Source: Owenia fusiformis
Taxonomy: Eukaryota
Length of the DNA stretch: 64,000 nucleotides
Assembly (NCBI GenBank): GCA_903813345.2
Contig: CAIIXF020000001.1
Coordinates: 28,520,001 to 28,584,000 of the forward strand
Reading direction: 5' to 3'
Under the pieces are notes generated by a model, which was given only the letters and a program-made list of their open reading frames with translations, had not been told where the DNA came from and made no database searches. Made by a program: the position numbers and the translations under genes. Positions 8,598 to 49,922 of the stretch are shown one piece after another; within the stretch, counting starts at the first letter, position 1; every line of letters starts with the position of its first letter.

Positions 8598-9071
8598 AAC
8601 ATTTAAGTATAGATGAAATCAAGTGAATTGAAGAAAAAAGATGTTGATATCATTATAAATATAACAATGGTTATTCAATAGAATTTTATTTAAATCTGGT
8701 TAGTATTGTCCCTCAAACAAAAACTTCAAAATACACTAATCCAAATTCAATTTCACGATCAAAGTTTTGTCTGAATGAAAATATAATGGATTTAACTACA
8801 TTGACAAACATAAATCTGTCACAGAAACTTTAATCCACAATGGGCATTCTTGAGATCATATAACATTGGTTTATCCACTAATAACGCAATGAGCTGTGGT
8901 ATCAATAGAGACGCCGTAATACACAGAAAGCAAAGAAACAACTTGAACAGGAAACATCTAGACCGAGAAGACACAATCAAAGGAAAGCATGAACGATTAA
9001 TAACTTTCCAAATAAGAGGAGGTGTAGGTCATAAACAAGAGTAATTGTCCATTCAAATAAGGAACCCAATC

Positions 9072-9965
9072 ATGCCGACGACGCCAGCAACAACAACTCT
9101 GCTCCTACCAAAGACACGGAGCTACCATGCGAAGAGCGTCCGACCAGACGCCAAAGTGGGCATGCACCTGAACCTTCATAAAAACATCGACAAACGCTTC
9201 AGGCCAACGTATGTAACGATAGATTATAAAAATGGACCAGAGAGTTTGGAGTTGATTGATATCGTATTGGCACGGCAGAGGCCATTTCTAAGGAGCTTCA
9301 GTGGAAGAAGGATGTACTCTGCGGGTCAGGTTTACACTCATGTTGACCACATAGCGCAGTCCGACCCATATAGGATAGCCGAGTCTAAAGGCTTCATGAT
9401 AGAAGAAAGAGAAGCACCTGGTGTACCACGACTAATTAAGAAAACCCCTGATGAAGTTGATGCCATTATAGATAGGATAACTAAGTTCGACCCTCGCAAA
9501 CACCCGGCCGATTCCCGGGGAAGATGTGGACGGTTTACTCCAGCCCAAGAGGATAGAGACCAGCGACCCACAAATAAATACTCCAATGATGACGTGAAAG
9601 CTATTGTTGAACGTTTATCAAAATTTGACCCTGAGAAAGTCCCTGAATCAAAGGGGCCAATCCGAGGAACGCCTACAAAGATGGATCTTCCCATTATCTA
9701 CAAAAAGAACTACACAGAGGATGAAGTACATGCCATAATTGACAGACTTATTAAATACGATCCTAGTAAGTGGCCTCCAGAATCACGAGGTAAATCTCCA
9801 ACCTTCCTACAGGAGGTCACAAAACAGAAGATGACAACTATCAAGAAATGTAAACCGTTTGAAGTTGAGGAGATTGTCGATAGACTGATGCAGTTTAACC
9901 CACAGAAATGGCCACCGGAGTCCAAGAGATTCAATCCAAATCGATCAACAACAGTTTGCTTCTGA
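9072..9965 (+). CDS. Intronless basic protein (297 aa) with five ~28-aa repeats, unknown function
   Basis: ATC ATG CCG start and an uninterrupted ORF. Repeats such as TPDEVDAIIDRITKFDPRKHPADSRG and YTEDEVHAIIDRLIKYDPSKWPPESRG are conserved in protein but diverged in DNA. AATAAA near 10529. Confidence 0.85.
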   Translation: MPTTPATTTLLLPKTRSYHAKSVRPDAKVGMHLNLHKNIDKRFRPTYVTIDYKNGPESLELIDIVLARQRPFLRSFSGRRMYSAGQVYTHVDHIAQSDPYRIAESKGFMIEEREAPGVPRLIKKTPDEVDAIIDRITKFDPRKHPADSRGRCGRFTPAQEDRDQRPTNKYSNDDVKAIVERLSKFDPEKVPESKGPIRGTPTKMDLPIIYKKNYTEDEVHAIIDRLIKYDPSKWPPESRGKSPTFLQEVTKQKMTTIKKCKPFEVEEIVDRLMQFNPQKWPPESKRFNPNRSTTVCF

Positions 9966-12385
9966 ATTACAATGACCTGCTTTAACATATGAAGCCCTGT
10001 CAGCATAGTGAACTACAAGGTGGACTCTTAAGGACTTGCCGTTCACCATATGGTAACTTTTAAGTATATATGTAGCTTGCAAAGTCCAGTACAACTAAAA
10101 AAAAATTATTTGTAGACTACAGAGCGATTTTTTATTTAGGTTTCGTATCAAAAATTAAGTTGGAGCAATTTTTCAAAAAAGGGGCCAATCTATTTCTAAA
10201 CATGTGTCCCTCTGGTTTCTTGATAACCTCATGCAGTAACCCAAAAGGGGTTTATTAGATGGAAACAGGAAAACATAAAAGAGCATTAAAGTGAACCAAT
10301 CCATTTAAATTTTGTAATATACCACGAAGTAATGAATGAACAATTACATAGAAAGATGAAATGGAAAATACAGTCGAACAAACTATTTTTTGAAACTATA
10401 CAAAATATATTTCACCATAATTGCAATGGTATTTATAGCAATCACCATTTTGACATCAAATTATTAACAGAGTTATTATAACCATGATTTATGGGTATTG
10501 AACAATTGTATTTGTGAATGTACTATGAAATAAAAGTGGAATGAAATATCAGAGTCTTAGATACCAATGATCGGTCGGAGATGATCATGTAAATTGATTG
10601 TGTTTTAACAATCTAAAATACCTTTAAAATACACTTCAATAGCACTATCCAATTACATGCTGTCCAGTATTTATTTGAAAGTCTAGCTCTGATCCTAAAA
10701 TTCCCCATTGACCAGTTTGAAAATACTTTGAAAATGGGTATGGGCCTTTATCAATTTGAACTTGTCATTCGGACTACAAAATTAGGAATTTTAGTTTTCA
10801 TATTTGCATGAAAGATTTCTATCAAAGCCTATGATGGTGAAAAATGCAGATTGTTTTGCTTTTAAAGGGGTATTTTAGGGTAAGAGTTAGAGAGTATACT
10901 ACATTAGAAATACCATGCGCCATCTTTATAAATATAGAAAGAACAGTCAATAATATTCCTTTAGTTCTATATAATAGAAAAGCAAATCCACTCAATTCTT
11001 ATGCCGAGGGAAGATATCACACTGAAATATTGACTCAACCCACATACAATCTTGCCCAAGGAGTTAATTACCTGTTATATTGCATGATTAATATAAAACC
11101 ATTCTAAAATATTTGTAATTTTATTATGCTTTATCGATTTTCTTAACATTTGTGCTGTTTATAAGATGTCATTGTTATATTTTATTACAGTACAGTTTTA
11201 CAGTATTGTTTTCATCAAAAATCTTTAATTTCATACCAACAGAATAATAATTTGTGCATTATCATAATGTAATCACATGTACATACACTGTATGTATATT
11301 GTAAGTTATATATGGAAAAATATATTTTACTGCACTGAATATACTATGTAGTGATTTATGTACATTTTTCATTTTATGAGGTATCATTCTGTATTCTATA
11401 CTCCAGGCACATTCTGTAAGCATTTTAAGTATTGCCTTGTAACATGTTAAAATATGCTCAAGCTTTTCAAATGGGCTACAAAAGAACAACTGAATAACAT
11501 TTACAAAACAGTGAAAATGCTCTTCAGATTAAATACTTCTTTTAACCCCTAAATGTGTCTTTTTGGTTAAGATATAACCAACTTTAGCAAACTTTCAACT
11601 TACAACATCCAAAATTTAATTTGTAATTCAATAAATGCCATTCTTCACACTCAAACGGATATACTTGAAATAAACATGTTAAAGAATATATTATTATTTG
11701 AAATGGTCCCTTATGATACCAAATCGAACCATTAAGTCCATTATCACCTTCAGTCAGCCTTTGGCCATTTTAAATGGCTAATATATCTCATCAATTGGAC
11801 TTTAAATCAGAATTATTTGACTGATTCCTTTTTATTGACATCATATGGTTAGATTGTCATGTAGCGTTTTAGATTCAATCACTGGTATTGTTCTTTTGTT
11901 CGGGTTTCCTACTCCAAAAAATTACTTAATTTCTTCAAATAGTGTTACTCCTTTCTTCATAAGCATTTTAGATATTTCAATGTTTTTTTCAATTTTAAAT
12001 ACTTTTGGCACTCTCACACTATTTATAAAGTTAAAAAATATGATAGCAATGTGCAAGATCAGTTCTTTTGGTGAAAATCTGTTGTAATAAGTCCCACCTC
12101 CTCTGCATTTTGGAATTATGATAGTCATTCAGTATAGCTGTATATACATTTTGTGCAAAATGTCCTCAATGCTGTAAATTCCTGGTGTTAATGTTCAGCT
12201 CTTAAAGTGCTCAAAATATAATATTCGGCCACCCTTTATACAAAAAGTCAAGCTCTAGTATTTGAAGTCCTATGTACAATATCTCAAAATCTTTTGGCCA
12301 GGTCATCTGAACAAGCATGGTGACCTATGCATCAGAGGTCCTCCATATATTAATTCTCATCACATGTTTTAAAGTCCTCCCATCT

Positions 12386-15300
12386 TTATGTATCTCTGAG
12401 TCCATCATTAGTGTACTCCCTGATACAGTTCTCAAATGGTACATTAGAGACCCAATGACAGAGACCATCTCTGTTGCGAGAGCAAATAGTGTATTTGTTG
12501 AAACAGTCTATAGCTGGGTCCTCAGGGTAATACAGACAGACATCTGGGTGCTTGTCGCATGGTTCATAGTCACATGTGATGATCTAAAAGAAAAAGAACA
12601 ATTTTAAATATGTTTGTTTTTAATAAACACATACAGAAAGTCTACAGTGAGTGTGAACCATCCCTGACCCTGATTGTAAGTATAGTAAAACCTGTAAAGT
12701 GAAACACCTCAAAAGTGGAACACCTCTATTAGTGGACCACTTTTCAACATCTCCCACATGGAACATTTATAGATACCAAAGGTGTTCCACTAGGACAGGT
12801 TTTACTGTACAAAGAAAATTCTGAGAAGATGTGAACATCAGATACAGTATTTAGATATACACTACCCTTATTGAAAAGATCAATGGTAAGAGTTTGAAAT
12901 ACTCATAACAAAGAATGTCCATTTTAAAAATTCACATGTCAGTAAACAAAAACAAAGAGATTTATTGTATCATTTGATTAAACTAAAATAGCATCTACCC
13001 TGCATTCACAGTTCTTTGAGTATGATTGCAGGACTGCCCCCAATGCCCTCCTCTCCTCCACAGACTCTGGCCAGTCTGATATGTACATACAGGAGTCACT
13101 GAATGGGAGATTTTTCTCTGCAATACCTATAGCATACAGGGTCGTAGAAAGATTAGTTACAAAAAGGAGACCTAGTGTCACCACTTACAGTACAATAAAA
13201 TGCAATACAATAAAAGTCAAATGCAATATATATGATTTATGTGTGAGAGTTGTGCATGAAGTACAATGCAATACAATACAATACAAGAACACAAATGTGT
13301 ACAAAATGTCCCCACCTATGGGTGATCCCATCAAATGGTTATCCTAAAAATGAGTAGACAAGACTTTAATGACACAATTTGAGGACGGAAAATCCAATAT
13401 GGCCACCTTAAAATTTACCCAGAATGCCCAAAAATTAGTCAGTTCTAGATTTTCATACTAAGAAGCACCCCTGAAAATTTGAAATTGATCCTTCACACAG
13501 TTAACCAGAAAACATGTAAACAAGACTTTACAGACAAGATTTGAGGACCGAAAATCCAAAATGGCTGCCTTGACATTTATCCAGAATGCCAAAAAACTAA
13601 TCTGTTCTAGATTTTCATACTAAGGATCATCCCTGAAAATTTGAAATTGATCTACCAAACGGTTCACCTGGAAATGCGTAGACAAAACTTTACAAACAAG
13701 ATTTTAGGACAGAAAATCCAAAATGGCTGCCTTGACATTTACCCAGAATGCCCAAAAACTAATCAGATCTAGATTTTCATACTTAGAATCATCCCTGAAA
13801 ATTTGAAATTGATCTACCTAACGGTTCACCTAAAAACGCGTAGAAAAGACTTTACGGGCAAGATTTTAAGACGGAAAATCCAAAATGGCTGCCTTGACAT
13901 TTATCCTGAATGCATAAAAACTAATGAGATCTAGATTTTCATTCTAAGAATCATCCCTGAAAATTTGAAATTGATCTACCAAACAGTTCACCTGGAAATG
14001 TGTAGACAATACTTTACAGACGAGATTTTAGGATAGAAAATCCAAAATGGCTGCCTTGACATTTACCCAGAATGCTCAAAAACTAATCAGATCTAGATTT
14101 TCATACTAAGAATCATCCCTGAAAACTTGAAATTGATCTACCAAACGGTTCACCTAAAAACGCGTAGACAAGACTTTACGGGCAAGATTTTAAGACGGAA
14201 AATCCAAAATGGCTGCCTTGACATTTATTCAGAATGCATAAAAACTAATGAGATCTAGTTTTTCATACTGAGAATCATCCCCATCCCTGAAAATTTCAAA
14301 TTGATCTACCAAACGGTTCACCTGGAAATGCGTAGACAAGACTTTACAGACAAGATTTGAGGACGGAAAATCCAAAATGGCTGCCTTGACATTTACCCAG
14401 AATGCCCAAAAACTAATCAGATCTAGATTGTCATACTGTGAATCATCCCTGAAAATTTGAAATTGATCTACCAAACGGTTCACCTGAAAATGCGTAGACA
14501 AGACTTTACTGACAAGATTTTAGGATGGAAAATCCAAAATGGCTGCCTTGACATTTACCCAGAATGCCCAAAAACTAATCAGATCTAGATTTTCATACTA
14601 AGAATCATCCCTGAAAATTTGAAATTGATCCACCAAACGGTTCACCTGAAAACATGTAGACAAGACTTTACACACGAGATTTTAGGACCGAAAAATCCAA
14701 AATGGCCGACAATAAAAAAGTGATTATGAGTTTTTGCTAATTTCTTTCAACAAAATTATCACATATAACTACTGTTAACAATAACATAGGCTTTTACAAC
14801 AAAGTACACCTGAAATTATTTATAAAGCTACTAAATAGTTTAAGTATGAAAACTGAATAACACCATTCAATATGATACAAAGTATTATCGTGCGCTAACT
14901 TTTCTTAAAACATTCAAAATGGCTGACATGACTGAGCTTACAGGTCCAAAACCTAATCAGATCTAGAATGAAGTGAGCTGAACAAGATTTTAAAGTTTTA
15001 AAAGCAACTGTGAAGCCGTTTTTCTTAAAGTTTGCAGACAAGGATTTTAGCATTTGACTTCAAAATGGCCGACAGGAAGTTGGTATCGAGTTAATTTTTT
15101 TTCATCCACATCTGTATGCACTCATAAGTTATCCCTGAAAATTTGAAGGTGATATCTGTAGCGGTTTTGGAGAAAACTGCCGGACGTACGGACAGACAGA
15201 CGGACAGACAGACGGACGCGCCTAGGCCGACAATATGGCCCCACACTATGTGGTGGGGACATAAAAAGTCAAATGCAATATATATGATTCGATTCTAACC

Positions 15301-18300
15301 TGAGATAATGTACTATGTGTGAGAGTTGTGCATAAAGTACAATGCAATACAATGCAATAAAATGGATTCGAACATGACTGTATTCACGCCTTCTATAAAC
15401 TGTAAACAAAGTCAACATTTCACCCGGGGTATATTCGCGAACAAAACCCCTGGTAATATGTGTAATGTGTGACGTCATAACGGCGGGCCATAGTAATGGC
15501 GGACCATAATGAATATTCGAAACATTTTGGTGAGTTTTCATGTTCGAATCGTAATATAGACCTCAGAGCAGGTATAATATCGTCGAATACACCCCTTAGG
15601 GCTAGGCACAAAAGCTTTCAAACCCCTCACTCCCTTCGGTCGTTTGGGGTACAGAAAACGTTTGTGTCTAGCCCTGCGGGGTGTATTCGACAATATTACC
15701 CCTGCTCTTCGGTCTATATTTCTTAAATACAATATAACACAATAAAATGCAATACAATTAAAGTCCACACCTACCTGAGATAATGTAATGTTTGTGAGAG
15801 CTTATATGAATTCCACAATGCAGTGGGTTAGAGGGGGTAAAGAAAATTCTCTTCTTCATTCTCTTCAAGCTTCTATAGTTACGGCTACCCTGGCAACAAG
15901 AGAAATTTTCAAAGTAGTTTCCATAGCAACTGTCAGAATGTAAGGATATATACATACTTGTAGTTGGACACAATTCAATAGAATAATCAATAATCTTGTA
16001 TTTAATGCTCACTGATATTAATCAAGATAATTTTTATAATAGATCATCTTGAGTGTACATGCAGTAAAGTAGTACAACATGTACTTATAAAAGAGATAGA
16101 TGCTTCCATTAGCTTATTAATATTACAATCGAAAAGAGCCCAGGGCTATATGTTGAAAACATATGTACAGTATCTGCTACCTTCACTGTCAGTGTCTCAC
16201 CTTAAATACAGTCTGAACCTTCATCTTGTATTGACTGAAGAATCCATTGTTTTTCTTTCCTTGGATAAAAGCTCTTACAGCTGAAATACCAAATATTCTC
16301 AAATTTATTTGACCCAAGAATCTTAACATTAATTAAAGAGGCACATGTTGAATGCTGTAATGATCAGGATACGGTTGTGCCTCTTTAAGAGATCTGTTTT
16401 TACAAGTTTTTAATATCTCGTTTTTAATTTCATATAGTTTTTAAGTCTTTAATATGGGAACAGGCTCTAAAGCTATTATATTCAAGTAGCTTATAATTAA
16501 ATTATTACTGTATTATTGATAAAATTGACACTCTACTTAAAGTGGTAGCAAAGACTAAGACAGTGTAAAATGTTGAAAGCAATCTTGTCAAAAACAATGC
16601 CTATGTTTTCCTTACAATCCTACATTTTCTGAAAATGGGATATCTGAAATAGTACTATAGAAGTTATTGAAGTTTTAAAATGCAGAAATGACCAAATGCT
16701 TCAGAAATACATGGAAAAGATGGGTCATAATACTTAGAGTCTACATCATTTTCAAAACATCATCAGTATCCCCATATATATTTCAGTCGATGATTGTACT
16801 AATTGATGTATAACCTGTCAACTTACAGCCCCCAACAATATGGCATACAATAAGGGACAAGGTCAATATCAATGCACACCCACGCACATAATTACAGTTA
16901 TCATATTTGAGGTGCAGGGTGTAAAATGTAAAAATGTAAACATGTTTTTTAATAATGTGAAGTACTTTTAATTTTAAAGAAATGTTCAATATATTTTTGG
17001 GGGAGGAGGGGGGATCAATCTGAAGTTATCAAATGTGCAGTGAAACAATACAATATTGACCTAATCTCTAAAACCCATCTTGTACTAACACTAAGGGCAT
17101 AGCAAAAGTGTTTACATTAAGTCCCATCCAGAAATCAGAGCAAAGAATTAACATGCAAAATGTTATCCCCTACCATTTGTTACAAATGCCGAACGCCAGA
17201 TAATTAACCACCAAAACCATCCACAAAAGTTAGAGGAGACTATAACAAACAAAATGTCACCACTTCTGGTGGTGACATAATAAAACCATACATCCAAGTT
17301 GAACAAACTTGAAGCAAATGAAAAGCAGATCATAACTATCATAACACCCATCTTCTTCCAGAAATAATTAATTCAAGAAAATTATTCTATGGTCTATTGC
17401 CCCAATAGACTATAGAATAATTATCTATGTACATGTATTATATCTTTATATACTTTGTAATGGAACACCTCCGTAAGTGGAATGCTCCTGTACCCAATTG
17501 AGTATTGACTTATTGTTGAATGAACCTCTGAAAGTGGAACAGCTCCCAAGTCAAACACTTTTTAGAGGTACAAAAGGTTATCCAGTTATAATTGGCATGT
17601 CTAGTTATACTCAATGAGCCCATATGTCAGGTAATTGATACATTCATTAGCACCCATGTTAACAGTAACATGTTGCCCATGTTAAACTAACATGTTAAAG
17701 TGCAACATGTAATCAGAGATCCAACACTTTAAATATTTGAGCAATATTTGCAATAATTGACCAACATGTTCTTCACCATCTCAAATATAATTGTTATAAC
17801 AAAATGAAGTTATTTGAGATTCAAAATCTAGAATCCATATTCATAGAAAATGTATAAGTAAATGTTAAAATCAGTGGTTTCTTTATAGTAAATGTGGAAT
17901 TGTGGATATCCAGTTATTCACATTTATGGAAGATGTATCCATAAATGTTAATCGTTGGTTTACCCTTGAATAAAGTATGAACTTTTGAGACTTTTAGAAA
18001 AAATAAAATTGAGACCATTTTTCAAATAATAACTGGCTACCTGATTCTCTGATAACCTAAAATCTTAACTCATATTTGTAATATACTTGATATGATACTG
18101 TGATCTGCAATTCGCACCACCAATACCAAGAGTTTGTTACAATTTACCAAAATCTGATGCACAATATCTTTCTTGAGGATGTATTCTCCCTTCACAAGGA
18201 CAGAATTCCTCCGTTTCTCTATATTCCTCATCATCCTCCTGTCCACATACACTTTGTAACAAATGTACTATATATACTATATACAAACTTTTGTCCACAC

Positions 18301-18310
18301 TAATCTTCAT
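12386..18310 (-). CDS. TIMP: Tissue inhibitor of metalloproteinases-like protein, 227 aa. Exons 18310-18148, 16280-16201, 15889-15775, 13126-12999, 12583-12386
   Basis: All introns are GT-AG with consistent phases (684 nt). Motifs: signal peptide, CPC..HPQERYCASDFAVRA, QYKMKVQTVFKG, FTP..HCG..YIISG, SCMYISDW, YSKNCECRIITC..PC..CL..C.R.RDGLCHW. Intron positions match the usual TIMP gene layout. Confidence 0.93.
12683..12807. mobile_element. Short Tc1/pogo-type MITE
   Basis: TA|TAGTAAAACCTG...CAGGTTTTACTG|TA with internal GTGGAACACC motifs. Related decayed copies lie near 17455-17590 and 59642-59802. Confidence 0.7.
13283..15267. mobile_element. Helentron-associated non-autonomous element (HINE/DINE-1-like) carrying a 162-bp satellite array
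   Basis: ACAAG end, small hairpin, subterminal TGTCCCCAC inverted to GTGGGGACA at the other end, and a (GACA/GACG)n tract. AATCCAA(A)ATGG recurs at 13391, 13553, 13715, 13877, 14039, 14201, 14369, 14531 and 14694. Confidence 0.85.
15553..15720. repeat. Long imperfect hairpin, probable end of an unclassified non-autonomous element
   Basis: AATATAGACC..TCGAATACACCCC..AGGGCTAGGCACAAA is inverted as TTTGTGTCTAGCCCT..GGGGTGTATTCGA..GGTCTATATT. Confidence 0.75.
17150..17285. mobile_element. Mini HINE-like element (family also at 21810-21845, 45070-45190, 61018-61340)
   Basis: Shared terminal hairpin ATGTCACCACTTCTGGTGGTGACATAA and the segment GCAAAATG..CCATTTGTTACA. Confidence 0.65.
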
Positions 18311-20208
18311 ACCAAAATTTTAAGATAATTTCTGAAACTCCTATCAACATGGATGTTATCAATTTTATATTTTTGAATCATCTCTTGGTGGTTTGATAAA
18401 TATTCCTTTGTGATTAAAGCCTAATTATGATCAGAATCAAGCATTCTGTTGTCTTGATCATTACACTGTTTTCCATGTGTCTGCATATATCGTATCCTTC
18501 GAGTTGAGGTTCTCTACTTTTCTAACATTGAAATGAGTATGTTGTTATATTGGCTGGATAAAGCCATGTATCTTAGTAAACTGTCACCTAAATGGCCTTA
18601 CTGGCTTACACTGCAAGGCATTATCAACAGAAACAATTTGTCTCTTAATTTCAAATGTTTTACTTTAATGTGACATAAAGGCTGGTAGACTTCAAGCCAA
18701 TTAAAAGGTACAAAGCTCAATAAACACATCAAATGACTGAAAAACATCAAAAGATCTGTCTTCCAACATTTAAACTTATGCCAATTTTCTTTCATTATAC
18801 AATTTGATCTAATAATTTCTTCAGTAAAAGGAATCATTTATCATAAATTGATGCATAAAGTTGAATAATATTCATTTACTACCAATATTTGGTTATCTAT
18901 TTTTCTGACTTTATGCTTTCATTCACATTGCCATTGGACTTCAACTGTACACATTTTACGAAGGCTAATGGGTCATCAATTTATTCATTTTGCTGATAAA
19001 ATCACTCATGAATGACAAATTCTATGAAAGGCATAAGCATATCTTGGATTTTCCTAGATTGAGAATTAAGAGCAATTATTACTGAGCAAAATATGTTTTT
19101 AGTGATTGTGACATCACAATCAAAAATTGTATATTCATTTTATTATTAAAGCCAATTAAATTCCCCATCTTTGGACATACATGTACTCATACACATAGCT
19201 TCTATCAATGTGATCCTTTTGAAGAATGATACACAGTGTCCCATGTTTATGACATACACATACTGGCAATTAATGATTTTCAAAATTAAGGTTGGTCAAG
19301 AAGAATGTTTAATCTTGCTTATCTGAAGTGATCCTTTTACATGTATGCTACAATATGTATTACTATGTAAACCAATCTGCCTACCTTGAGAAACCGCTTA
19401 TTTTGGATATTACTTTCAGGTACAGTAATCTTTCTTCTGCATTCATTAAAATAATTTTGGTTCTTCTTACTTACTTGTCATTTATTTAATTGAAATACTG
19501 TTAGTAGTTAATAGGTATCACTTCAGTGAATATGTTCCTTAGGAAGAGATTACATGGTGATGGTATATCACAGATTAAACCCCACTTAGTAGCAATACAA
19601 TAGAATTAACTGTAGTTTATTTTAAAGAATTTACAGTTGTATCAAAAGAAAAATCCATTCTCTTTCTATTGTTTTTAAAGAAATGACACTTCGCAAGCTA
19701 TCAAAAACCAATGTGGCAAAAAAGACAATTAATAGTTTTTGATAGTGTTCATCATTTAAGAACAATATACCAATGTACATTTATTCTTCTTTTGTTATTG
19801 TTCATTCTTTGAAATAAAACAATTAAATAACAATTAATTAATTTGTGCTGCTACCTAGAGTATTGATCCAAGTTAACTCAGTCAATAGTTCAATAGAAAA
19901 TACAAAAGAAATCAAATTTTACACTACATACATGGCCTGTTACATGCAGTGCACTGAACGAATTATAGTCATTGTGAGGTTTAAGTGAGATAAACAATAT
20001 CGGCCCTTGGCTATTATTTCTCCTAGTTCCCAGGGCTTATTGTTTATCCATTACTTAAACTGGTGGATCCAAATAGTGATTAGTTCCTTTTAGCTGATTG
20101 TCCCGAAAATACATGGTCCTTGGAAACTCCATAACATCAGAATAACTTCAAGGGGTTTAATCTAATAAGCATTATGTCCTCATATACATAAATGAGTAAA
20201 CAGTCGTG

Positions 20209-22740
20209 CTATAAAACTTCAAATTGAGATACATAAAGTTGAGTCACTTCCTGTGGAGTAAAGTTTTGGTCTAATTTTACAGCAATATTACTAGTATTCC
20301 CTGTCCTTGCTTGCTTTTTGTATTCTTTGTCTCTTTCTCGTTCATTTTCCCTAGCAACCCAATTTCTTTGTCGCGCTAATCTCCGTCTCATTTTATCTTT
20401 CTCCCGTTCTAATTGTCTATATGCAGGGTCCTTTCTTTTAGATGCCATCCTTGCTTTAGCCTCTATGCGTTCCTTGTCTCTGCAATTAAAAGATCACCAT
20501 ATATTGGAAGCACAAAGCATTATGTGAACAAGGTTAAATGACGAATTTAGATAAAAGCGAGTGGCTGATAAGGAGCAATGATGAAGATTGCATCGATGAG
20601 ATGTCAATGTAACCATTTGAATAGTTGATTATATATAGATGTCATTTGATGGGAGGGATTTTGGCCAATATTGGATCAAGTACAGCATCTGATACAGGAT
20701 TTTGGCTGACATAGGATCTGAATATCAATTCTATTCCCTGTTCATTTCCCAGGGAAAACATGTTATGGAATAAACGCTTACATTCACTCAGATGAATTGA
20801 ACATCTGTAAAAATTACCCACTGACCTGAAAGAAGGATCCTGTCTGAGTTGTCTTTTCTTTATTTTGTCACGTTCTCTTTTCAAAACATTTCTTTTAGCA
20901 CAATAATAATCCTCTACAGTCTCTTGGCTGTCCATGTAGAGTTTTACATCCTCTCTGGACCATATGTCTCCCTCCTCTATATATCCCTGGGTAGAGTCAG
21001 GAAGAGTGCTTGGGCCAATGTCTGTAGAACCTCCATCCCCAGGGAACTCCACATAGGATTCAATACTATCATTTGTAATATCACTGCTGAAAAATAGTTT
21101 ACTCTGTCGATTATGTGGAGAAGAATGTCTTATTGACATTTTTTTGTTTTCTGGGTAACTGCATCTTTGAGAAATAGTGCAAACATCTTAGAATGATCTT
21201 TCTGATCTCTTACCCTTTTACCATTTTTGGATTCATTGATCTCATAAATCCCACAAACTTTTCAGGTTTTTTAATTAGTTTATACCAGGTTTTTTCAACT
21301 CCTCCTAAGAAAAAATCAAGAAAATCAAATAATTCAAATAAATCTGACAAATTTTGTGCAAGTGAAATTGCAATCACAGAAGTACACACACATCCAGAAT
21401 TTTTTTTATTTTGGTTCCCAGAATTTTTCCCTTGAATTTATCATTTTGTGCTGAAAATTGCAGAACTCTGACTTCGGAAACGGATTTGTTATTTGACCCA
21501 ACGGTAAAGCATCACTATTCCCTGTGGATAAAATAGTCAAAAATTTGAATCATACTTTCAGTGATTGATTTTATAGTACCTGTTTGGTATGTTGATAGTT
21601 TTCATCTCTCCATTCTCTTGTATCTCTATCTGTAAGCCTTGCACCTCTGACTGCTCACAAATCTGGCCATTGTGTGTAGAAGGCTCACCCGCCTCCTCAT
21701 ATGTACTGTCTGCCTTACTTTGTACTATCAGGTCATCTGCAACAGTTACATTTAGTTACAACAGTTACAATAGTTACATTATGTTAACTGACTTGATCCC
21801 AACACAATGAACTAGACAGCAAGTCTGGTGGTGACATAAATAATACTAGAAAAATACTAATAGTGAGCATATTGAAGGCTAGGCATGTATAGAGAGGTGG
21901 GGATGGTTCCATCCATACACAACTATTTGAAGACCTTTCAGAAGAATCCATTTAAAATGGATTGGACTTGAGTAATGTACCTATAATTATCTGTATATCT
22001 TGCTGGTTGAGCTCCGTGCCTTGCCTCTCTGTGCCATTTGTACCTTCTGTCCCACTTGCTACAACCTGCTCTTCTGTACCAGAGGTAATGACAACTGTCT
22101 CTTCCATAACATCAGGGACCTCATTCTCAACAATACATACATAATCTGGAGGGAAGAGAAGGATGCTTATATTGATGTATCACACAAATAAATGGATATT
22201 ACAAAAATGTAACAAGATCTTATAAAAAAAACTATTTTCCAAAAGATATTCCTGAGACTGAATAACATGTGTTTTAAAAAAAGAAAGTCCATTTCATTTC
22301 TAATGAACTTTGTTTACTGGGATAACAAATGTCAATGATGGTAATAGTTATTGGTCAATTGTAGATATACTTGTATACATCAAGCATTTTAGTAGATTTT
22401 CTATATAATATGCCTACCCTATTATAAATAACCACATAAAATATTAACAGAAATTTAACTTCCAGACATACTATTACTTGGATATCCGAGCTTTCATCCA
22501 GACAGATGAAGCCATTCTCTATAAATATCTCTCAAATTCATCCTCCCTTAATTATTGCTGAGTGTATAAGCATGGGCTTTCAAGATCTCTTTGAAACCCC
22601 ATGGTATAAGCAAGCCTACCTTCCTGATTTGGCCCATGGTCACATGCCTCAGCAGATGATGATGGTGGATATACAATCTTAACAATGTTGTCTTTGCCTA
22701 TCACATATTGTGGGACTGGAGTGTTACTTTCTTCGCTCAT
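20209..22740 (-). CDS. Protein (~324 aa) with an acidic disordered N-terminus and basic helical 21-aa repeats (STPR/ZNF821-like, putative DNA-binding). Exons 22740-22620, 22145-21981, 21736-21580, ~21086-20826, 20479-20209
   Basis: GT-AG junctions with consistent phases (1,1,2,2). C-terminal KRERDKIKKRQLRQDPSFRDKERIEAKARMASKRKDPAYRQLEREKDKMRRRLAR. The acceptor of exon 4 is ambiguous (21086 or ~21160). Possible non-coding first-exon donor at ~24300. Confidence 0.72.
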
Positions 22741-23428
22741 ACTTCTATAAGGATACTGAAATAACAATAGTTATACTTGGTATAATCCATTTGTCTAATT
22801 CAATTCTATCGCAAATTTGGTTGACAACGATACATGTCTTAGCTTGGGTAATTTTTTTTGGGGGGGGTTCTAATTCATGCATGCATCTCCTCTTGACCCT
22901 AGCATGAACACCATTTCACCTTTGTCTCTGACTCAAAAAGAACACTCCATCACAGCCTAGACTGATCAAGAAAATTATATTAAATAAATGGTGTGCACTG
23001 TGCAGTGGCCTTAGAATCATTTAAAGTCTTTGAGTGTCTTTATTCACATTTTCTGCTGAAGTTATTTTCTGGTTCAAAACAATGTATGAAAACATGGGTT
23101 AATATATTTTCTTTTTCAAACAAGTATCATTGTGTACTTTTGATAAATCTGGGAAGAGGCCAATGCCAACTCAGTGAAATGCTGATATTTCAAGAGAAAA
23201 CATTCAAAGCGGCCACTGTTACAACGTTCTCCTCATTTACTGTAGTTTCTCAACAATGTTAAATTACTTACAATTTATTCTAATTCACTTAACCCTTAGA
23301 TGCGACAAGGATACTTCCATGAACAACAAATGAAATATGGTAATTCATTTATGATGCTTAATCTGAAGCAGACAGTAATGTGCAGAAATATTGATTTTTT
23401 TGAAAATGTGAATATAGGTAGACATGAA

Positions 23429-27829: not shown

Positions 27830-28320
27830 TTAGAATTCCCACATTGATTTTGGAACCTCAGCTTCTATTGTTCTCCTCAATCTTTCGAACTGTTTAGTGT
27901 CAGCCTCCCAATCATCTTTGAATTCAAGACAGAAGTTTGGAATATAACCCGGCACCACATCTCGTCTTTTTACTCCAATCACAAGTGGAATAAGTCTTGC
28001 TAGCTCTCCCGAATTAACCAGAAGACGGAATATTGTCTCCATCACAAATATTGTGAATTTATCTTCCTTGAAATCCGTGTCAAATACCACAATGAAATAT
28101 TTGCTTTTCTTTAACGCATCTGTTAGCTCGCTGAGGGAGTCTTTAATCTTTGAGTCTCTCCAAGGGAGGTAGCCACGCTGTCCCTGCTCCTCTAGTTTTC
28201 CCATGATGAATAGTGCTTTTTTTCGTGACCCCTCAGACTTCTCATTGCAGATCAACCAGAAGTCATTTTCATACTTCACCATTTGGCCCTTTAATGTCTC
28301 AACGTAAGACGAGATTACTC
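27830..28320 (-). CDS. Divergent TIR-domain protein, apparently TIR-only (150 aa from ATG 28282; exon acceptor at 28320)
   Basis: KYENDFWLIC (box 1-like), KLEEQGQRGYLPWRD (box 2-like), DALKKSKYFIVVFDTDF, RLIPLV and terminal FERLRRTI follow the TIR secondary-structure order. The upstream exon is probably near 28750-29100; its coding status is unresolved. Confidence 0.82.
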
Positions 28321-28839
28321 CTAAAAAAGAAAATATTGAATTCATTTTTCAGTGGTTTGTGTAGTATTGAATGAACAACATAATTTATTTAAGTTGTAGA
28401 ATCATTGAATTGCATATAAATAATCTTTAATCTTACTGTTTCAATAAAAAGTCGCTGCTTTAGAATGTATCTTATTATACGATATGTTTTCCACTTTGGA
28501 TTGGTGCATTTTTGTGCATTACAGGGTGGTATCGTATAGGTGGAACACTACAACTTTTAATATACATATGTAATGATTATCTTCTATGCCAAAATATTCT
28601 ACTAATATTCTATTTAATCTATTCCATTAAAAATTAAACTTCTTTATCTTAGTTTTTTATCATTGATATTGTTGATATTACATACAGCAAACAGAATAAC
28701 ATGTAGAATAGTATACAAATAGGCAGTCACTATTTGTTTTATTATATACCCTATACTGACTATTGTCCCGTTTCCTCTGCGAAGGCCAAAAAGGTTTAGA
28801 AAGCCCCCTCCCCGGGTCCATTGTTAGCATTATAAGCTG

Positions 28840-41800: not shown

Positions 41801-43652
41801 CCGGACTTTTTTTTAAAAATCATCTACAACTTCTCAGGAGTTCATATTTAACCTCAGATTTGACATTTGACCTTTAGTTCACCTTCAGTGACCTTCGAAA
41901 GGTCAGAAAAGTTGATTTTTCAAATAGAGTTTTTGGGTTCAAATTTAGGATAAGCCTAATCATAAAAGACCCACTGAACTCTAAAACAGTAAAATTTTCA
42001 AGGTCAAGGGTCACGGTTATCAAATTAGGTCAAAGATCAAAAATTAGGTCAAATCTGTATTTTTTTCAAGTTTCTCAACTTTGTCCTTATACTTCATTAT
42101 TTCTTGCGATGAATTAAACTGAAACTACATTTTAGTATTTTCTACAAATTGTTCACTAGATGTCAGCATTAAATTTTAACCGTTTTTGAGATATTTGACG
42201 TCGAAAAACGGTCAAAAAAGTCATTTTTCAACTTGCTTCAATCTGACCAATTTTTTTTTTAAAAATCATCTACAAGTTCTCAGGAGTTCACATCTGACTT
42301 CAGATTTGATATTTGTCCTTTAGTTGACCTTCAAATTGTCAAAAATGCCTAAGAGGGCCTCCGTGAGATTGCTTGCAATCTTAAAAGTCTAGTTGTAATT
42401 GTTCTTCATCATAGTAATGTAAACAATTGATTAGCTCTGTGTCAAGATGCCACAACTCACCATTATCTATTTCAAAAAAGAAGCTATTGATATTTCAAAC
42501 TAATGTATATGTATCTTGTATGAAATATTCCTAATTCTGATTGCAGGGCTGCAGGAGACCCCCCTCCTGCATGCAATTTGGCAGGGCAATTTAGACCTGG
42601 TCAGCCATCTATTAAAGCACAAGGCTGATCATAGCCAGAAAGACTCTCGTGGTGTGACCCCTATAAAGCAAGCCTGTCAGCATGGTACTCTTGCAATGGT
42701 GAAGGATCTACTTGACAATGGAGTGGATATTAATGAGACCACTGTCCATAAGTTTACTCCCTTGCATCACGCAGTACTTGGTGGTAATGCAGACATTGTT
42801 GAGTATATACTAGATGAGGGTGCTAACTTGAATGTACAGTCATATATGGGAGACACACCATTCCTCCTCGCAGTTAAGCTCAACCATATTGACATTGTGC
42901 AACTATTCCTAAGCAAGGATATAGACCTTAAGTTTGAGAAACAAGGAGAGAGGAGTCTTAGAGAGTCCCAGAGTTCTGAGATTATGAAGCTACTGCTAGA
43001 TAAAGGCATATGTGCAATGGAGGTGGATGAATGGGGTGACTCAGTTTTCAAGTCCATAATAGCCCAGCTAAGGAGGGACTCTTCTGATGAGCCTTTTCAG
43101 GTTTTGAAGCAGATGTGCAGCCATTATGGGTACAATAACCTTGGTAAGTGGCAGGATGTTGTGCTCCACATGGCTGTGTGGAATTGTGACATTGAGATGA
43201 CTAAGCTGCTCCTTGAGGCTGGTGCCAACCCCAATGTCGCCCTAGACTCATACTATCCCTTGATAACTGCAATGGAAAACTATTCAGATGATATTTTTAA
43301 ACTGTTGATACTTTATGGTGCTGATATAAACCCCACCAAAGGTGCTAATCCTTTTATCACTGGTTGCCAAGGAGATGGAACGTACCTTATGTTGAAGATC
43401 CTTTACACTGCTGGCTGTGACCTTGACCCCTTAAGGTCATGGATAGATGAAGGTAAAGCAGTTCAGAAACTGCAAACTGACGATGTTGTTACATGGAGTT
43501 GGATTCAGGATGTTGTGTCTCAGCCACGCTCATTGAAACAACTGTGTGGAATTGCAATCAGACAATTGCTACACCAACCCATCTATTCACCAACTGAGAA
43601 GCTTCCACTACCGAAACCCCTCAAAGAGTACCTATTGTTCGAAACTGAGTAA
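29832..43652 (+). CDS. Ankyrin repeat and SOCS box (ASB-like) protein, >=468 aa. Exons 29761/29832-29971, 30382-30542, 42547-43652
   Basis: Junctions TCC AG|gt..ag|A TTT (phase 2) and AAT G|gt..ag|GG CTG (phase 1). About 10 ankyrin repeats (TPLLHAI, TPLHHAV, TPFLLAV) and a SOCS box PRSLKQLCGIAIRQLL..LPLPKPLKEYLL. AATAAA at 44221. The true start may lie upstream. Confidence 0.9.
30880..42393 (+). mobile_element. Cluster of seven nested/tandem Helentron-like (HINE) elements with ~445-bp internal subrepeats
   Basis: Heads AGGAGGCCCTCCTGAAAGGGCCTCCT plus (TTC/TTA)n at ~30881, 32006, 32057, 32108, 33563 and 35461. Tails GGGCCTCC-GAGATTGCTTGCAATCT-CTAGTT end at ~32005, 33552, 35441, 37367, 39188, 41013 and 42393. 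Confidence 0.88.
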
Positions 43653-45704: not shown

Positions 45705-48700
45705 ATAAAGATAAAGGAGCTAAAGGCAAAGTGATAGAAAGATTTTTGATAAATAAAGAGTAGAAAGGTGATGAGAGAAAAAGAAATGAGAGAAGCAGAA
45801 ATACAACGATTGTTAGAGATGAATGAAAATAGAAAGTGTGAATATTGGAACTAGAAATATTGAAAGAGAGTAAGTGAAAACATGATTAGAAAAAAGAGAG
45901 GTTTGATTATTAGAATTTATAAGAAAATGTGTGATAAGTAGAAATAGAAAGATTGTAAATGAGAAAGTGTGATGGTTTGAAATAGAAGGATTGTTAGAGA
46001 AATAGTTAGACAGGTAGAAATAGAAAGGTTGTTAGAGAAGACTATGATGAGTAGAAATAGAAGGATTGTAAGACAGTAGCTGAGCTTGATAGAAATAGAA
46101 AGACTATAAAGAAAGTGTGATGATTTAGAATAGAAAGATTGTCAGAGAGAAAGTAAGATTGATAGAAATTGAAAGATTTGCAAATGAGAACGTGATGATT
46201 TGAAATAGACAGATTGACAGATTGAGAAGTTTGAATAAGTAGATTTAGAAAATTTGTAAGAGAAAATTGTGATAAGTAGAAAGATTGTCAGAGAGAAAGT
46301 GAGGATTTGAAATAATCAGATTGTCTGAGAAAAAAGAGAGTTAAGTAGAACTAAGAACTTGTTAAAGAAGATTGTGATAAGTATTAGAAAGCTTTTAAGG
46401 GAAAGTGTGATGATTCAAAATAAAAATATTGTTATAGAGTGTGAGATAAGAAGTAGCAAGATTGTTACAGAAGATTGTGATAAGTAGATATAGAAAGATT
46501 GTAAGAGAGAAAGTGAGATAAGTAGCAAGATTGTGAGAAAGTAAAATCAAAATAGGAAGATTGTGATTGATAAGTGTGATGATTTAAAATAGAACGATTG
46601 TCTGAAAGAAAGTGAGATAAGTAGAACTAGAAAGATTGTTAGAGAATATTGTGATAAGTAGAGATTAGAAAGATTGTTAGAGAAAGTGTAATGTTTTGAC
46701 ATAGAAAGATTGTCAGAAAGAAAGAGTTATGTATGTAGAACTAGAAAGATTGTAAGAGAAGATTGTGATAAGTAGAAATAGGAAGACTGCAAGAGAAAGT
46801 GATACTTTGAAATATAAAGATTGTTAGAGAGAGAGCGTGAGATAAGGAGATTGTAAGGGAAAATCGTAATAGTGGAAATAGAAAGATTGTAAGAGAGAAA
46901 GTGGGGTTGTAAGAGAAAGTGTGATAATTTGATATATAAACATTGTTACATCGAGAGAGAGAGAGAGTGAGATCGATAGAAATAGAAAGATTGTATGAGG
47001 GAAAGTGTGGTAATTTGAAATAGAAGGATTGTCGGAAAGAAAGAGTGAGATATGTAGAAATAGAAAGGTTGTTAGAGAAGGTTGTGATAAATAGAAAGAT
47101 TATAAGAGAGAAAGTGAGATTAGATAGAAAAAGTGTTACAGAAAATTGTTAGTGAGAGAGTGAAATAAGCAGAAATAGAAAGATTGTTAGAAAAGATTGT
47201 AATAAGTAGAAAAGGAAAGATTGTAAAGGAGAGAGATTGATAGAAATAGAAGTATTTTAAGAGAGAAAGTGTGATTGATAGCAATAGAAAGATAGTGTGA
47301 TAATTTGATATACAAAGACTGTTAGAGAGAGATCAGTAGAACTAGAAAGATTGTTTGAGAAAGTGTAAAGATTTAACATAGAAAGATTTTCAGAAAGAAA
47401 GAGATATGTAGGAATAAAAAGATTGTTAGAGATAAAGTAAGATAAGTAGAACGAGAAAGATTGTTAAAGAATATTGTGATAAGTAGAGATAGAAAGATTT
47501 TAAGAGAGAAAGTGAGATAAGGAGAAATAAAAAGTTTGTTTGATGAGATTGATAGAAATAGGAAGATAGTGAGAGAGAAAGTGTGATGATTTGAAATAGA
47601 AGAATTGTAAGTGAGAGAGTGAGATCATCAGAAATAGAAACATTGTAAGAGATAAAGTGAGATCGATAAAAAAGAAAGATTGTAAATGAGAGAGTGTGAT
47701 AGATATAGATGGAGTAAAGGAGAAGGATATGAATCGAAATAGGAAGATTGAAAGTGTGATGATAAGAAATAAAGATTGTTGTAAAAGTATGAAAGGTTGA
47801 AGTATTGTAAAAGAGAAGGTGAAATTGTAAATTAGAAAGTGTGATGAACTGAAATACAAAGATCACAAAAGAGAAAATGAGATAGAAGTAGAGATAGAAA
47901 GAATGTAAGAGAGAAAGTGAGATAAGTAAAAACAGAAAGATTGTTAGAGAGAAAGCGAGAAAAACAGAAAAGGAACGAATGTTGGAGTAAAAATATGATA
48001 GGTAGAAAAAGAAAGATTTTTGTAGTGAGAACGTTTGATAAGTAGGAAAGAGATAATTAGACAAAGAAATGTAAGAGTAAAAGTATGATATGTGGAAATG
48101 CAAAGATTACAAGAGAAAGGGTAAGATAGGTAGAAATAGAAATATTGTTGAAGAGAAGGTTGAAATTGATAGAAATAGAAAGTCTGTAAATAAGAAAATC
48201 TGATGATATTAAATAGAAAGATTGTCATAGAAAAAGTGAGGTATAAGTAGAAATAGAACGATTTTAAGAGCAAATTGAGACAAGTAGAAATAGAAAGATT
48301 ACAGGGGAGAAAATGAAATTGATAGAAGTAGAAAGATTGTAAATGAGAAAGTTTGATGATTTGAAATAGAAAAGTTGTCAAGAGAGAAGGTGGGATAAGT
48401 AGAAATAGAAATATTGAAAGAGAGAAGGTGAAATTGATAGAGATAGAAAGATTGTACAAAGTGTGATGATTTGAAATAGAAAGATTGTCAGAGAAAGTGA
48501 GAAAATTAGAAATAAAAAGATTGTTACAGAGAAGGTGAGAGAAGTAGAAATAGAAAGATTATAAGAGTAAAATAGATAGTAATATATGATAGGTCAAAAT
48601 AGAAATATTGCAAGAGAGAAGGTGAAATTGATAGAGATAGAAATTAGAAAGTGTGATGATTTGAAAGATTCTCAGAGAAAGTGAAACAATTAGGAGTAAA

Positions 48701-49290
48701 TGATTGTTAGAGAGAAAGTGAGAGAAGTGAAAATAGAAAGATTGCAAGAAAGAAAGCGAGAAGTAGAAAAAGAAAGATTGTAAGGGTAAAAATATGATAG
48801 GTAGAAATAGAAATATCGAAGGAGAGAAGGTGAAATTAATAGAGATAGAAAGATTGTAACTTAGAAAGTATGATGATTTGAAAGAGAAAGATTGTCAGAG
48901 AAAGTGAGATTATTAGTAATAGAAAGCTTGTTAGAGAGAAAGTGAGAGAAGTGGAAATAAAAAGATTGCAAGGGAGAAAGTGAGAAGTAGAAAAAGAAAG
49001 ATTGTAAGGGTAAAAATATGATAGAAATAGAAATATTGAAAGAGAGAGGGTGAAATTGATAGAGATAGAAAGATTGTAAATTAAAAAGTGTGATGATTTG
49101 AAATAGAAAGATTGATAGAGACAAAGTGAGAGAAGTAGAAATAGAAAGATTGCAAGAAAGAAAGTGAGGTGAGTAGAAATAGAAAGATTGTAAGAGAGAA
49201 AGCGAGATGGGTAGAAACAGAAAGATAGTAAGGTATATATTTATAGAAAGAAAGGCAGAAATTAAGATAGGAAAGTTTGATTGAAAGCAT
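45705..49290. repeat. Purine-rich degenerate minisatellite, ~38-bp unit
   Basis: GTGAGATAAGTAGAAATAGAAAGATTGTAAGAGAGAAA and its variant GTGTGATGATTTGAAATAGAAAGATTGTCAGAGAGAAA recur. C is very scarce on the + strand. Confidence 0.92.
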
Positions 49291-49376
49291 TACAAGAAAA
49301 TACTTCACGGTTATAGAAATGCGATAGCCATATATTCGTGATAATACTGAATTTGAATACAATAGTGTGGTGGTCT

Positions 49377-49496
49377 CTAAGTCGTGAAACAAGCCTGTCA
49401 AGTCATCTAAGCCGTGAAACAAGCCCGTCAAGTCATCTAAGCCGTGAAACAAGCCTGTCAAGTCATCTAAGCCGTGAAACAAGCCTCGTCAAGTTA
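49377..49496. repeat. 30-bp tandem repeat x4
   Basis: CTAAGCCGTGAAACAAGCCTGTCAAGTCAT starts at 49377, 49407, 49437 and 49467. Confidence 0.95.
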
Positions 49497-49922
49497 TCAA
49501 CGCCTGACGTTGGGCTGTCAACGCTATACTTCAGAAGTATGTCTAGGTTAACCTAAACTGTAAAGCGAAGCATCACTACAAGTCTATACACTGTTATGGA
49601 TCAATTGAGTATCTACATCAGTATCAATATAACATTAACAACTACGATTTCAATTCTTCCGTAAACAACGTACATTGTGTACGTTTGTATTAATATAAAT
49701 ATGTTAAAGAACCGTCCAAGGCCCCGTGGGTTCGTTTGGCACTTTCACTGATTGAGCACTTGTGAATTTTTCTTCATAAGAATCGTTTGACACTAGCATC
49801 ATACTTAAATCATTTAACAGTTAATGAACCAAAATAATTTCAAATATATATACATGTTCGATCACTTAAAGTGTTTAAGTAGGTATGAATGCATACTTTT
49901 ACCTATACTTTATGTTAATTTG

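Follow-up and report, generated by a model that had tools for sequence, protein, structure and literature searches.

The minus strand of a 64,000-nucleotide stretch of the Owenia fusiformis genome (NCBI assembly GCA_903813345.2, contig CAIIXF020000001.1, positions 28,520,001 to 28,584,000; this whole stretch is called the window below, and all positions are counted within it) carries a gene of five coding exons, running from 18310 to 12386, whose predicted product we accept as a very diverged member of the TIMP family (MEROPS I35). The gene is real and is weakly transcribed. It had been picked out from the sequence alone as encoding a TIMP with an acidic N-terminal extension that should block the canonical inhibition of matrix metalloproteinases (MMPs), and this is referred to here as the original prediction. 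As modelled, the protein keeps the scaffold cysteines of a TIMP and the Cys-x-Cys start of its inhibitory domain, but a short acidic arm would stand ahead of the cysteine (Cys1) with which a canonical TIMP begins. The reading that we favour, and to which we give an even chance, is that the product is a secreted, very diverged TIMP-fold paralogue that has lost canonical inhibition and works as a binding protein instead.

Animal TIMPs (TIMP-1 to -4, PF00965) consist of two domains, with 12 cysteines at matching spacing, and are commonly encoded by five exons (PMC10755359); the predicted Owenia protein and its gene are alike in each of these respects. They are also alike in the start of the domain, which reads Cys-x-Cys...His-Pro-Gln...Cys-x-x-Asp. 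The Owenia protein is unlike them in that its Cys1 is predicted to be internal, in having Pro at position 2, an insertion after Cys3 and no Pro5, and in having two extra cysteines in the C-domain.

Pfam scans were run exon by exon, with E-values calculated over 24736 models; the gathering score of PF00965 is 23.1 bits. In the first scan, two of the 32 minus-strand open reading frames (ORFs) matched this family. These were the ORF of exon 1 (13.2 bits, E 0.075, profile positions 2-19) and the ORF of exon 4, which is longer than the exon itself (17.0 bits, E 0.0051, profile positions 103-137); the remaining weak matches were those of five ORFs to five unrelated families. When the exact exons were used, exon 1 matched PF00965 through its residues 36-54 (profile 2-19, 13.9 bits, E 0.047) and exon 4 matched profile positions 105-135 (14.1 bits). 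Each of these single-exon matches lies below the 23.1-bit threshold. PF00965 was nevertheless the only family matched by two ORFs in the first scan, or by two of the five exact exons, and for one family to turn up twice in collinear order on a single strand, each time at an E-value of around 0.05 over all models, would be a very unlikely coincidence.

The cysteines point in the same direction. Counted from the Cys1 of the motif, twelve of them occupy TIMP-like positions: six in the N-domain, at mature positions 1, 3, 14, 70, 96 and 123, and a further six at 125, 130, 135, 142, 160 and 168. Two extra cysteines, at 153 and 179, both fall in the C-domain. The original prediction had described the six N-domain cysteines as intact, and this is what was found; their spacing fits the pairs Cys1-Cys70, Cys3-Cys100 and Cys13-Cys123 of TIMP-1 (PMC9409782), so that the same disulphides would presumably form in the Owenia protein. 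The N-domain is about 122 residues long with a net charge of +11, and the C-domain is about 69 residues long with a net charge of -6. The six C-domain cysteines also appear to fit the TIMP-2 pattern.

The five exons have GT/AG borders and matching phases (the donor of exon 1 is in phase 1), and once spliced they form an open reading frame of 684 nt and 227 codons. TIMP genes of molluscs and vertebrates usually have the same number of exons (PMC10755359). In exon 4 there is a second in-frame AG, 9 nt 3' of the acceptor chosen here. The basic patch claimed for exon 3 is indeed located there; it is the run Arg-Ser-Leu-Lys-Arg-Met-Lys-Lys-Arg, encoded at 15848-15874 and comprising residues 87-95.

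Transcription was followed over window positions 11000-23000 in three RNA-seq runs bearing the same species label (X14, X15 and X16, sampled at approximately 6-12%) and in a contig set (X10). The latter, listed only as 'RNA?', does contain RNA, since two genes of this region are represented in it by spliced contigs. The exons are covered to a depth of only around 1-4 in the raw runs. One X10 contig, of 891 nt, has its last 561 nt on 12024-12583, where it ends exactly at the acceptor of exon 5; the remaining 330 nt correspond to the length of exons 4, 3 and 2 together (323 nt) plus 7 nt. The bin 15812-16212 holds 12 nt of exon 2 and 78 nt of exon 3, and a contig depth of 6.19 over these 90 exon bases, divided by 401, gives 1.39, which is the value observed in that bin. 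Taken together, the end of the contig, its depth and its length indicate that exons 2-5 are spliced as modelled.

Translation of the minus strand over 18148-18310 gives 54 residues and reproduces the reading of exon 1 in the original prediction. The only ATG of the exon is that at 18308-18310. Behind it, Lys2 and Lys7 precede a hydrophobic core of 11 residues (residues 8-18, the best 11-residue window on the Kyte-Doolittle scale, with a mean of 2.02). The -3/-1 rule permits cleavage only after residues 20, 22 and 23, the last of these being the cut after Ser-Val-Cys-Gly that had been proposed, whereas Cys1 is residue 37. If the signal peptide is cut after residue 23 as predicted, the mature chain would begin with the acidic stretch that had been seen ahead of Cys-Pro-Cys, residues 24-36, with a net charge of -7. 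This acidic cluster is more than chance: when the 227-residue product was shuffled, 93 of 20000 shuffles had at least 8 Asp/Glu within 13 residues, and among the stop-free 13-residue windows in all six frames of the 64 kb, 10 of 56680 reached 8 acidic residues. One Tyr of the extension has acidic residues on both sides. The ridge that follows reads Cys-Pro-Cys-Glu-Gly, with Pro at position 2 and Gly, not Pro, at position 5. There are four residues between Cys3 and His-Pro-Gln, compared to three in vertebrate TIMPs, and thus one residue has been inserted after Cys3.

It does not appear from the predicted sequence that a mature protein could readily begin at Cys1. No site compatible with the -3/-1 rule is found among residues 24-39, and cleavage after Phe36, directly ahead of Cys1, violates the rule. 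The acidic codons sit in one exon with the Cys-x-Cys motif. Between the ATG and the Cys codon there are 12 AG sites, and in no case do the 15 positions upstream, which in a good internal acceptor should be rich in pyrimidines, contain more than 8 of them; the last AG before the Cys codon has 3 of 15, and its use would still leave Glu-Phe ahead of the cysteine. An alternative TIMP-type first exon was found neither on the minus strand between 16281 and 20000, where there is one unrelated Cys-x-Cys match, nor elsewhere in the window; a motif scan of the whole window gave one TIMP-type N-terminal motif, and one unrelated match on the plus strand. There is also no dibasic or furin-type (Arg-x-Lys/Arg-Arg) site in or beside the extension. 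With no suitable cleavage site, a single ATG that has an in-frame stop upstream of it, and no good acceptor, Cys1 is predicted to be internal. Provided that the modelled transcript is the one expressed, it should be preceded by at least 13 residues, unless a further protease trims them. Two features of a canonical TIMP are absent from the predicted protein: Cys1 is not first in the mature chain, and the ridge does not read Cys1-(Ser/Thr)2-Cys3-X-Pro5.

In the canonical mechanism of TIMPs the free alpha-amino group of Cys1 caps the catalytic zinc. Residue 2, which is Ser or Thr, enters the S1' pocket, and the conserved ridge Cys1-X-Cys3-X-Pro5 occupies the cleft together with the C-connector loop (PMC3679795, PMC3003256, PMC10702220). 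The original prediction held that N-terminal additions abolish MMP inhibition, which agrees with the published mutagenesis, where a blocked or extended N-terminus is reported to reduce it severely (PMC3003256). The closest engineered counterparts, [-1A] to [-8A]N-TIMP-3 and Ala+TIMP-2, likewise have residues ahead of Cys1 (PMC3003256; PMC5410052), but their extensions are of 1-8 alanines, whereas that of the Owenia protein would be a natural, strongly acidic one of 13 residues. [-1A]- and [-2A]N-TIMP-3 are poor inhibitors of MMPs but retain activity against ADAM17 and ADAMTS-4/-5; once 8 alanines are added, the Ki is above 1000 nM for all six enzymes tested, ADAM17 and ADAMTS-4/-5 included (PMC3003256), and Ala+TIMP-2 is described as inactive (PMC5410052). 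By extension from these alanine series, an arm of 13 residues should abolish canonical inhibition. The Pro at position 2 had also been called atypical, and it is so by comparison with the Ser or Thr given for this position in PMC3679795. Pro2, Gly5 and the extra residue before His-Pro-Gln would mean that the ridge itself is changed and not just capped; in particular, that Pro5 is gone and a residue has been inserted after Cys3, neither of which the original prediction mentioned, argues against an inhibitor that is merely latent and otherwise canonical.

By inference from these features, the product would be secreted after removal of its signal peptide, with the two-domain TIMP disulphide scaffold kept and the 13-residue acidic extension staying ahead of Cys1. 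Its reactive edge would be remodelled in three ways, by the extension, by Pro2 in place of Ser or Thr, and by the residue inserted after Cys3 with the loss of Pro5. The amino group of Cys1 could then not reach a catalytic zinc, and MMPs, ADAMs and ADAMTSs would not be inhibited in the TIMP way. The strongly basic N-domain (net +11) might instead tether the protein to anionic matrix or glycosaminoglycans, in a way that the acidic arm might modulate. There is a precedent for such a role in the NTR domain of PCPE-1, which is reported not to inhibit metzincins and to work via binding to heparin or heparan sulfate (PMC2871463); that domain, however, lies within a multidomain protein as an internal, C-terminal module, whereas the Owenia protein is a two-domain TIMP for which heparin binding is hypothetical.

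Several observations weigh against this reading. The signal peptide is predicted by a rule of thumb, with a short hydrophobic core that includes Tyr and His. The exact exons 2, 3 and 5, taken alone, have no Pfam match of any kind, and no exon among 1, 4 and 5 matches a solved TIMP. Expression is very low in all three RNA-seq runs. The cDNA check called for in the original prediction bore out the splicing of exons 2-5 and left exon 1 unconfirmed by RNA: the X10 depth is 0 over 18218-18618, and the raw mean depth over the same interval is 1.07 in X14, 0 in X15 and 0.75 in X16. These raw reads may be read-through from an upstream gene on the minus strand, whose RNA depth declines steadily towards exon 1. 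The joints listed as best supported belong to repeats and to this upstream gene, and among them the junction 18148-16280 is neither shown nor excluded. What has stood of the original prediction is a TIMP-family gene with an intact scaffold and with the extension and the Cys-x-Cys motif in one exon; the activation by cleavage, the docking of the acidic arm onto the basic patch and the matrix or signalling role that it also raised are conjectural. Finally, the sequence searches retrieved no orthologue in which the extension could be surveyed, as had been proposed, and no paralogue; the gene could be drifting.

These searches were as follows. A word-indexed protein search gave no candidate with exon 1 as query (against proteins of 96-2000 aa) and, with exon 5 (115-2000 aa), six candidates of which none reached E <=0.01. 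When exon 5 was searched with phmmer in 1.84 billion representatives, 10 matches came up at E <=0.001, all of them consisting of multiple stretches and none of the 10 with a Pfam TIMP domain, and the ESM Atlas returned no usable match to the same exon. Against solved structures, phmmer gave no match for exon 4 and six for exon 5 (E 1.2-1.8), none of which is a TIMP. The two structures matched by exon 1 (E 2.2 and 3.2) are both designed helical repeat proteins and were rejected. A neighbouring ORF with ankyrin repeats and a SOCS box (42504-43649), by comparison, has a counterpart among the O. fusiformis proteins at NCBI, 500 residues long, with 100% identity across 96% of the ORF. Since the neighbour's protein is present in the collection while exons 1 and 5 find nothing there, the public annotation of this species apparently lacks the TIMP-like gene. 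Table S12 of PMC10755359 gives 17 TIMP-family entries for O. fusiformis (13 core, 1 branch, 1 pseudo TIMP and 2 other), and the gene described here is probably not among them.

Among the alternatives, the gene may be a drifting or dying duplicate, that is, a surplus copy of the 17-gene family in which constraint on the reactive end has been lost and which is barely expressed. We consider this unlikely. The large size of the family in O. fusiformis (17 listed, 14 of them canonical TIMPs, PMC10755359) is consistent with it, as are the extreme divergence of a C-domain that reaches no TIMP at E <=0.001 in the search of all representatives, the very low RNA depth and the apparent absence from the annotation; and yet the frame is open over five exons, the splice sites are intact, none of the 12 cysteines has been lost and there is a spliced transcript. 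It is also possible, but rather improbable, that the protein is a latent pro-TIMP, in which Cys1 is masked by an acidic propeptide, which may also neutralise the basic N-domain, until a protease trims it back to Cys1 to give an active inhibitor. That the Cys-x-Cys motif and the 12 scaffold cysteines are retained behind the extension suggests that the N-terminal segment still matters. Further, the extension (net -7) and the N-domain (net +11) are oppositely charged, and the basic run immediately precedes the C-connector loop, to which Cys1 is joined by a disulphide (PMC10702220). The missing dibasic or furin-type site speaks against such trimming, which would need a cut after Phe36, and Pro2, the loss of Pro5 and the one-residue insertion alter the very ridge that an active inhibitor needs (PMC3679795, PMC10702220). 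No report of a TIMP propeptide or of a latent TIMP came up in a literature search of incomplete coverage, made on titles and abstracts. More doubtful again is a fully zymogen-like form of this scheme, with an acidic and possibly tyrosine-sulfated propeptide that buries or displaces Cys1 and neutralises the N-domain until a protease trims it.

An error in the gene model or in the processing assumed here, such that another mRNA start or another signal cut yields an ordinary TIMP beginning at Cys1, has in our view only a slim chance. Exon 1 was not seen in RNA and its cleavage site is predicted by a rule of thumb, both of which would allow for such an error; against it stand the single exon that acidic codons and Cys-x-Cys motif have in common, the poor nearest AG with its residual Glu-Phe, the breach of the -3/-1 rule by a cut after Phe36 and the lack of an alternative TIMP-type first exon in the window. 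A Tyr among acidic residues is a typical context for tyrosine sulfation, and hirudin-like acidic tails offer a comparison for an arm that binds an exosite. On this composition of the arm, with its Tyr among acidic residues, one could propose a retargeted inhibitor whose tail is directed to an exosite of a protease other than the metzincins, but no relative of this kind is known and we hold the proposal to be very improbable.

Spacers ahead of the domain have been described for cnidarians. The cnidarian proteins AvTIMP, NvTIMPa and AmTIMPf are, like the Owenia protein, predicted to be secreted with a spacer that sets the NTR domain apart from the signal peptide (PMC4860685). They are described as being without Cys-x-Cys, and the spacer of AvTIMP, residues 25-72, is proline-rich (PMC4860685), whereas the Owenia gene would keep the Cys-x-Cys motif behind a spacer that is short and acidic. 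The gene also shares its species and its family expansion with the O. fusiformis TIMPs and pseudo TIMPs of PMC10755359, in which surplus TIMP copies are proposed to have undergone N-terminal structural changes; a pseudo TIMP is defined there by Pfam, PANTHER and PROSITE matches to the NTR domain but no such match in SMART. The expansion of TIMPs in this species, N-terminal changes and spacers are thus already in print (PMC10755359, PMC4860685). Particular to the gene described here would be the intact scaffold and Cys-x-Cys motif behind a short acidic arm, in what is apparently an unannotated member of the family.

A natural TIMP that hides its Cys1 would parallel the alanine-extended TIMPs with which inhibitory and non-inhibitory functions have been separated, and could show what roles the expanded TIMP families of invertebrates have beyond protease inhibition. 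Should the arm be a removable propeptide after all, it would represent an undescribed layer of control on the balance between proteases and inhibitors in the extracellular matrix. We know of no latent TIMP, and a removable tail would make this the first. The scope is that of one predicted protein from one gene, in a family for which N-terminal changes and spacers are already on record, and the significance is modest.

Coordinates of the Owenia TIMP-like gene and of its N-terminal elements within the window
Feature	Positions	Strand	Details
Possible TATA box (TATAAAA), 53-59 nt 5' of the ATG	18363..18369	-	weak evidence; local G+C 30%
In-frame TAA stop, 9 nt 5' of the ATG	18320..18322	-	read from the sequence
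Coding exon 1, 163 nt	18148..18310	-	residues 1-54 and first base of codon 55; ATG 18308-18310; donor G/GTAAAT
Predicted signal peptide, residues 1-23	18242..18310	-	hydropathy and -3/-1 rule; Val at -3, Gly at -1
Acidic extension, 13 residues (24-36)	18203..18241	-	8 Asp/Glu, 1 Arg, net charge -7
TIMP N-terminal motif, residues 37-54	18149..18202	-	Cys1-Pro2-Cys3, four residues, His-Pro-Gln, two residues, Tyr-Cys14-Ala-Ser-Asp-Phe
Exon 2, 80 nt	16201..16280	-	acceptor tatttcag/, donor AAG/gtgaga; Val-Arg-Ala... strand after Cys14
Exon 3, 115 nt	15775..15889	-	acceptor ttgttgccag/, donor G/gtaggt; basic run and Cys70
Exon 4, 128 nt	12999..13126	-	acceptor gctatag/, donor AGG/gtagat; Cys96 and Cys123-x-Cys125
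Exon 5, coding part	12386..12583	-	65 codons and TAA at 12386-12388; C-terminal domain, 8 cysteines
3' untranslated region, minimum extent	12024..12385	-	reach of the RNA contig

The window as a whole is AT-rich animal DNA, with 30-42% G+C. A second TIMP-like gene was not found in it: tblastn of the spliced model against the window returned the five exons of the gene itself, and the next match had an E-value of 1.2. PMC4860685 mentions the nesting of TIMP genes with synapsin; no synapsin-like ORF was seen among the 8 large ORFs scanned, which was not a thorough test.

The introns of the gene are rich in repeats. In intron 3, at 13332-14706, a 162-nt unit is tandemly repeated 8.4 times, with 87% matches. 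The RNA depth over this array is 300-700, mostly in one orientation, and since its reads are both abundant and 90-95% alike, related copies elsewhere must be transcribed. The intronic repeats at 12604-15811 and 17015-17816 are probably transposon fragments; they have a high multi-copy depth of both RNA and contigs, with most reads again 90-95% alike, and loose ends occur within them at 12712, 12774, 12809, 15366, 17248 and 17280.

The upstream gene, at 19400-22620 on the minus strand, is transcribed at approximately 10-30x. Reads and one X10 contig confirm four of its introns, 20479/20826, 21086/21580, 21736/21981 and 22145/22620, each of which reads CT..AC on the plus strand, and no Pfam family matches its large ORF (20645-21187). 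The annotated ankyrin-repeat and SOCS-box gene, encoding the 500-residue protein, lies at 42504-43652 on the plus strand, and an ORF at 27830-28348 on the minus strand matches a TIR domain just below the Pfam threshold (25.3 versus 28 bits, E 2.2e-05). Two further frames are without a Pfam match. That at 9045-9965 on the plus strand has 306 codons and encodes about four repeats ending in Phe/Tyr-Asp/Asn-Pro-x-Lys-x-Pro-x-Glu-Ser-Lys/Arg-Gly, and that at 49923-50948 on the minus strand, of 341 codons, has a Met followed by a signal-like stretch, a long acidic Asp-rich region and a hydrophobic C-terminal stretch. The regions 46000-50000 and 1-2064 consist of strongly strand-skewed low-complexity DNA, in which the GC skew rises to as much as 0.8 at 46-48 kb, and both carry long repetitive open frames on the minus strand.

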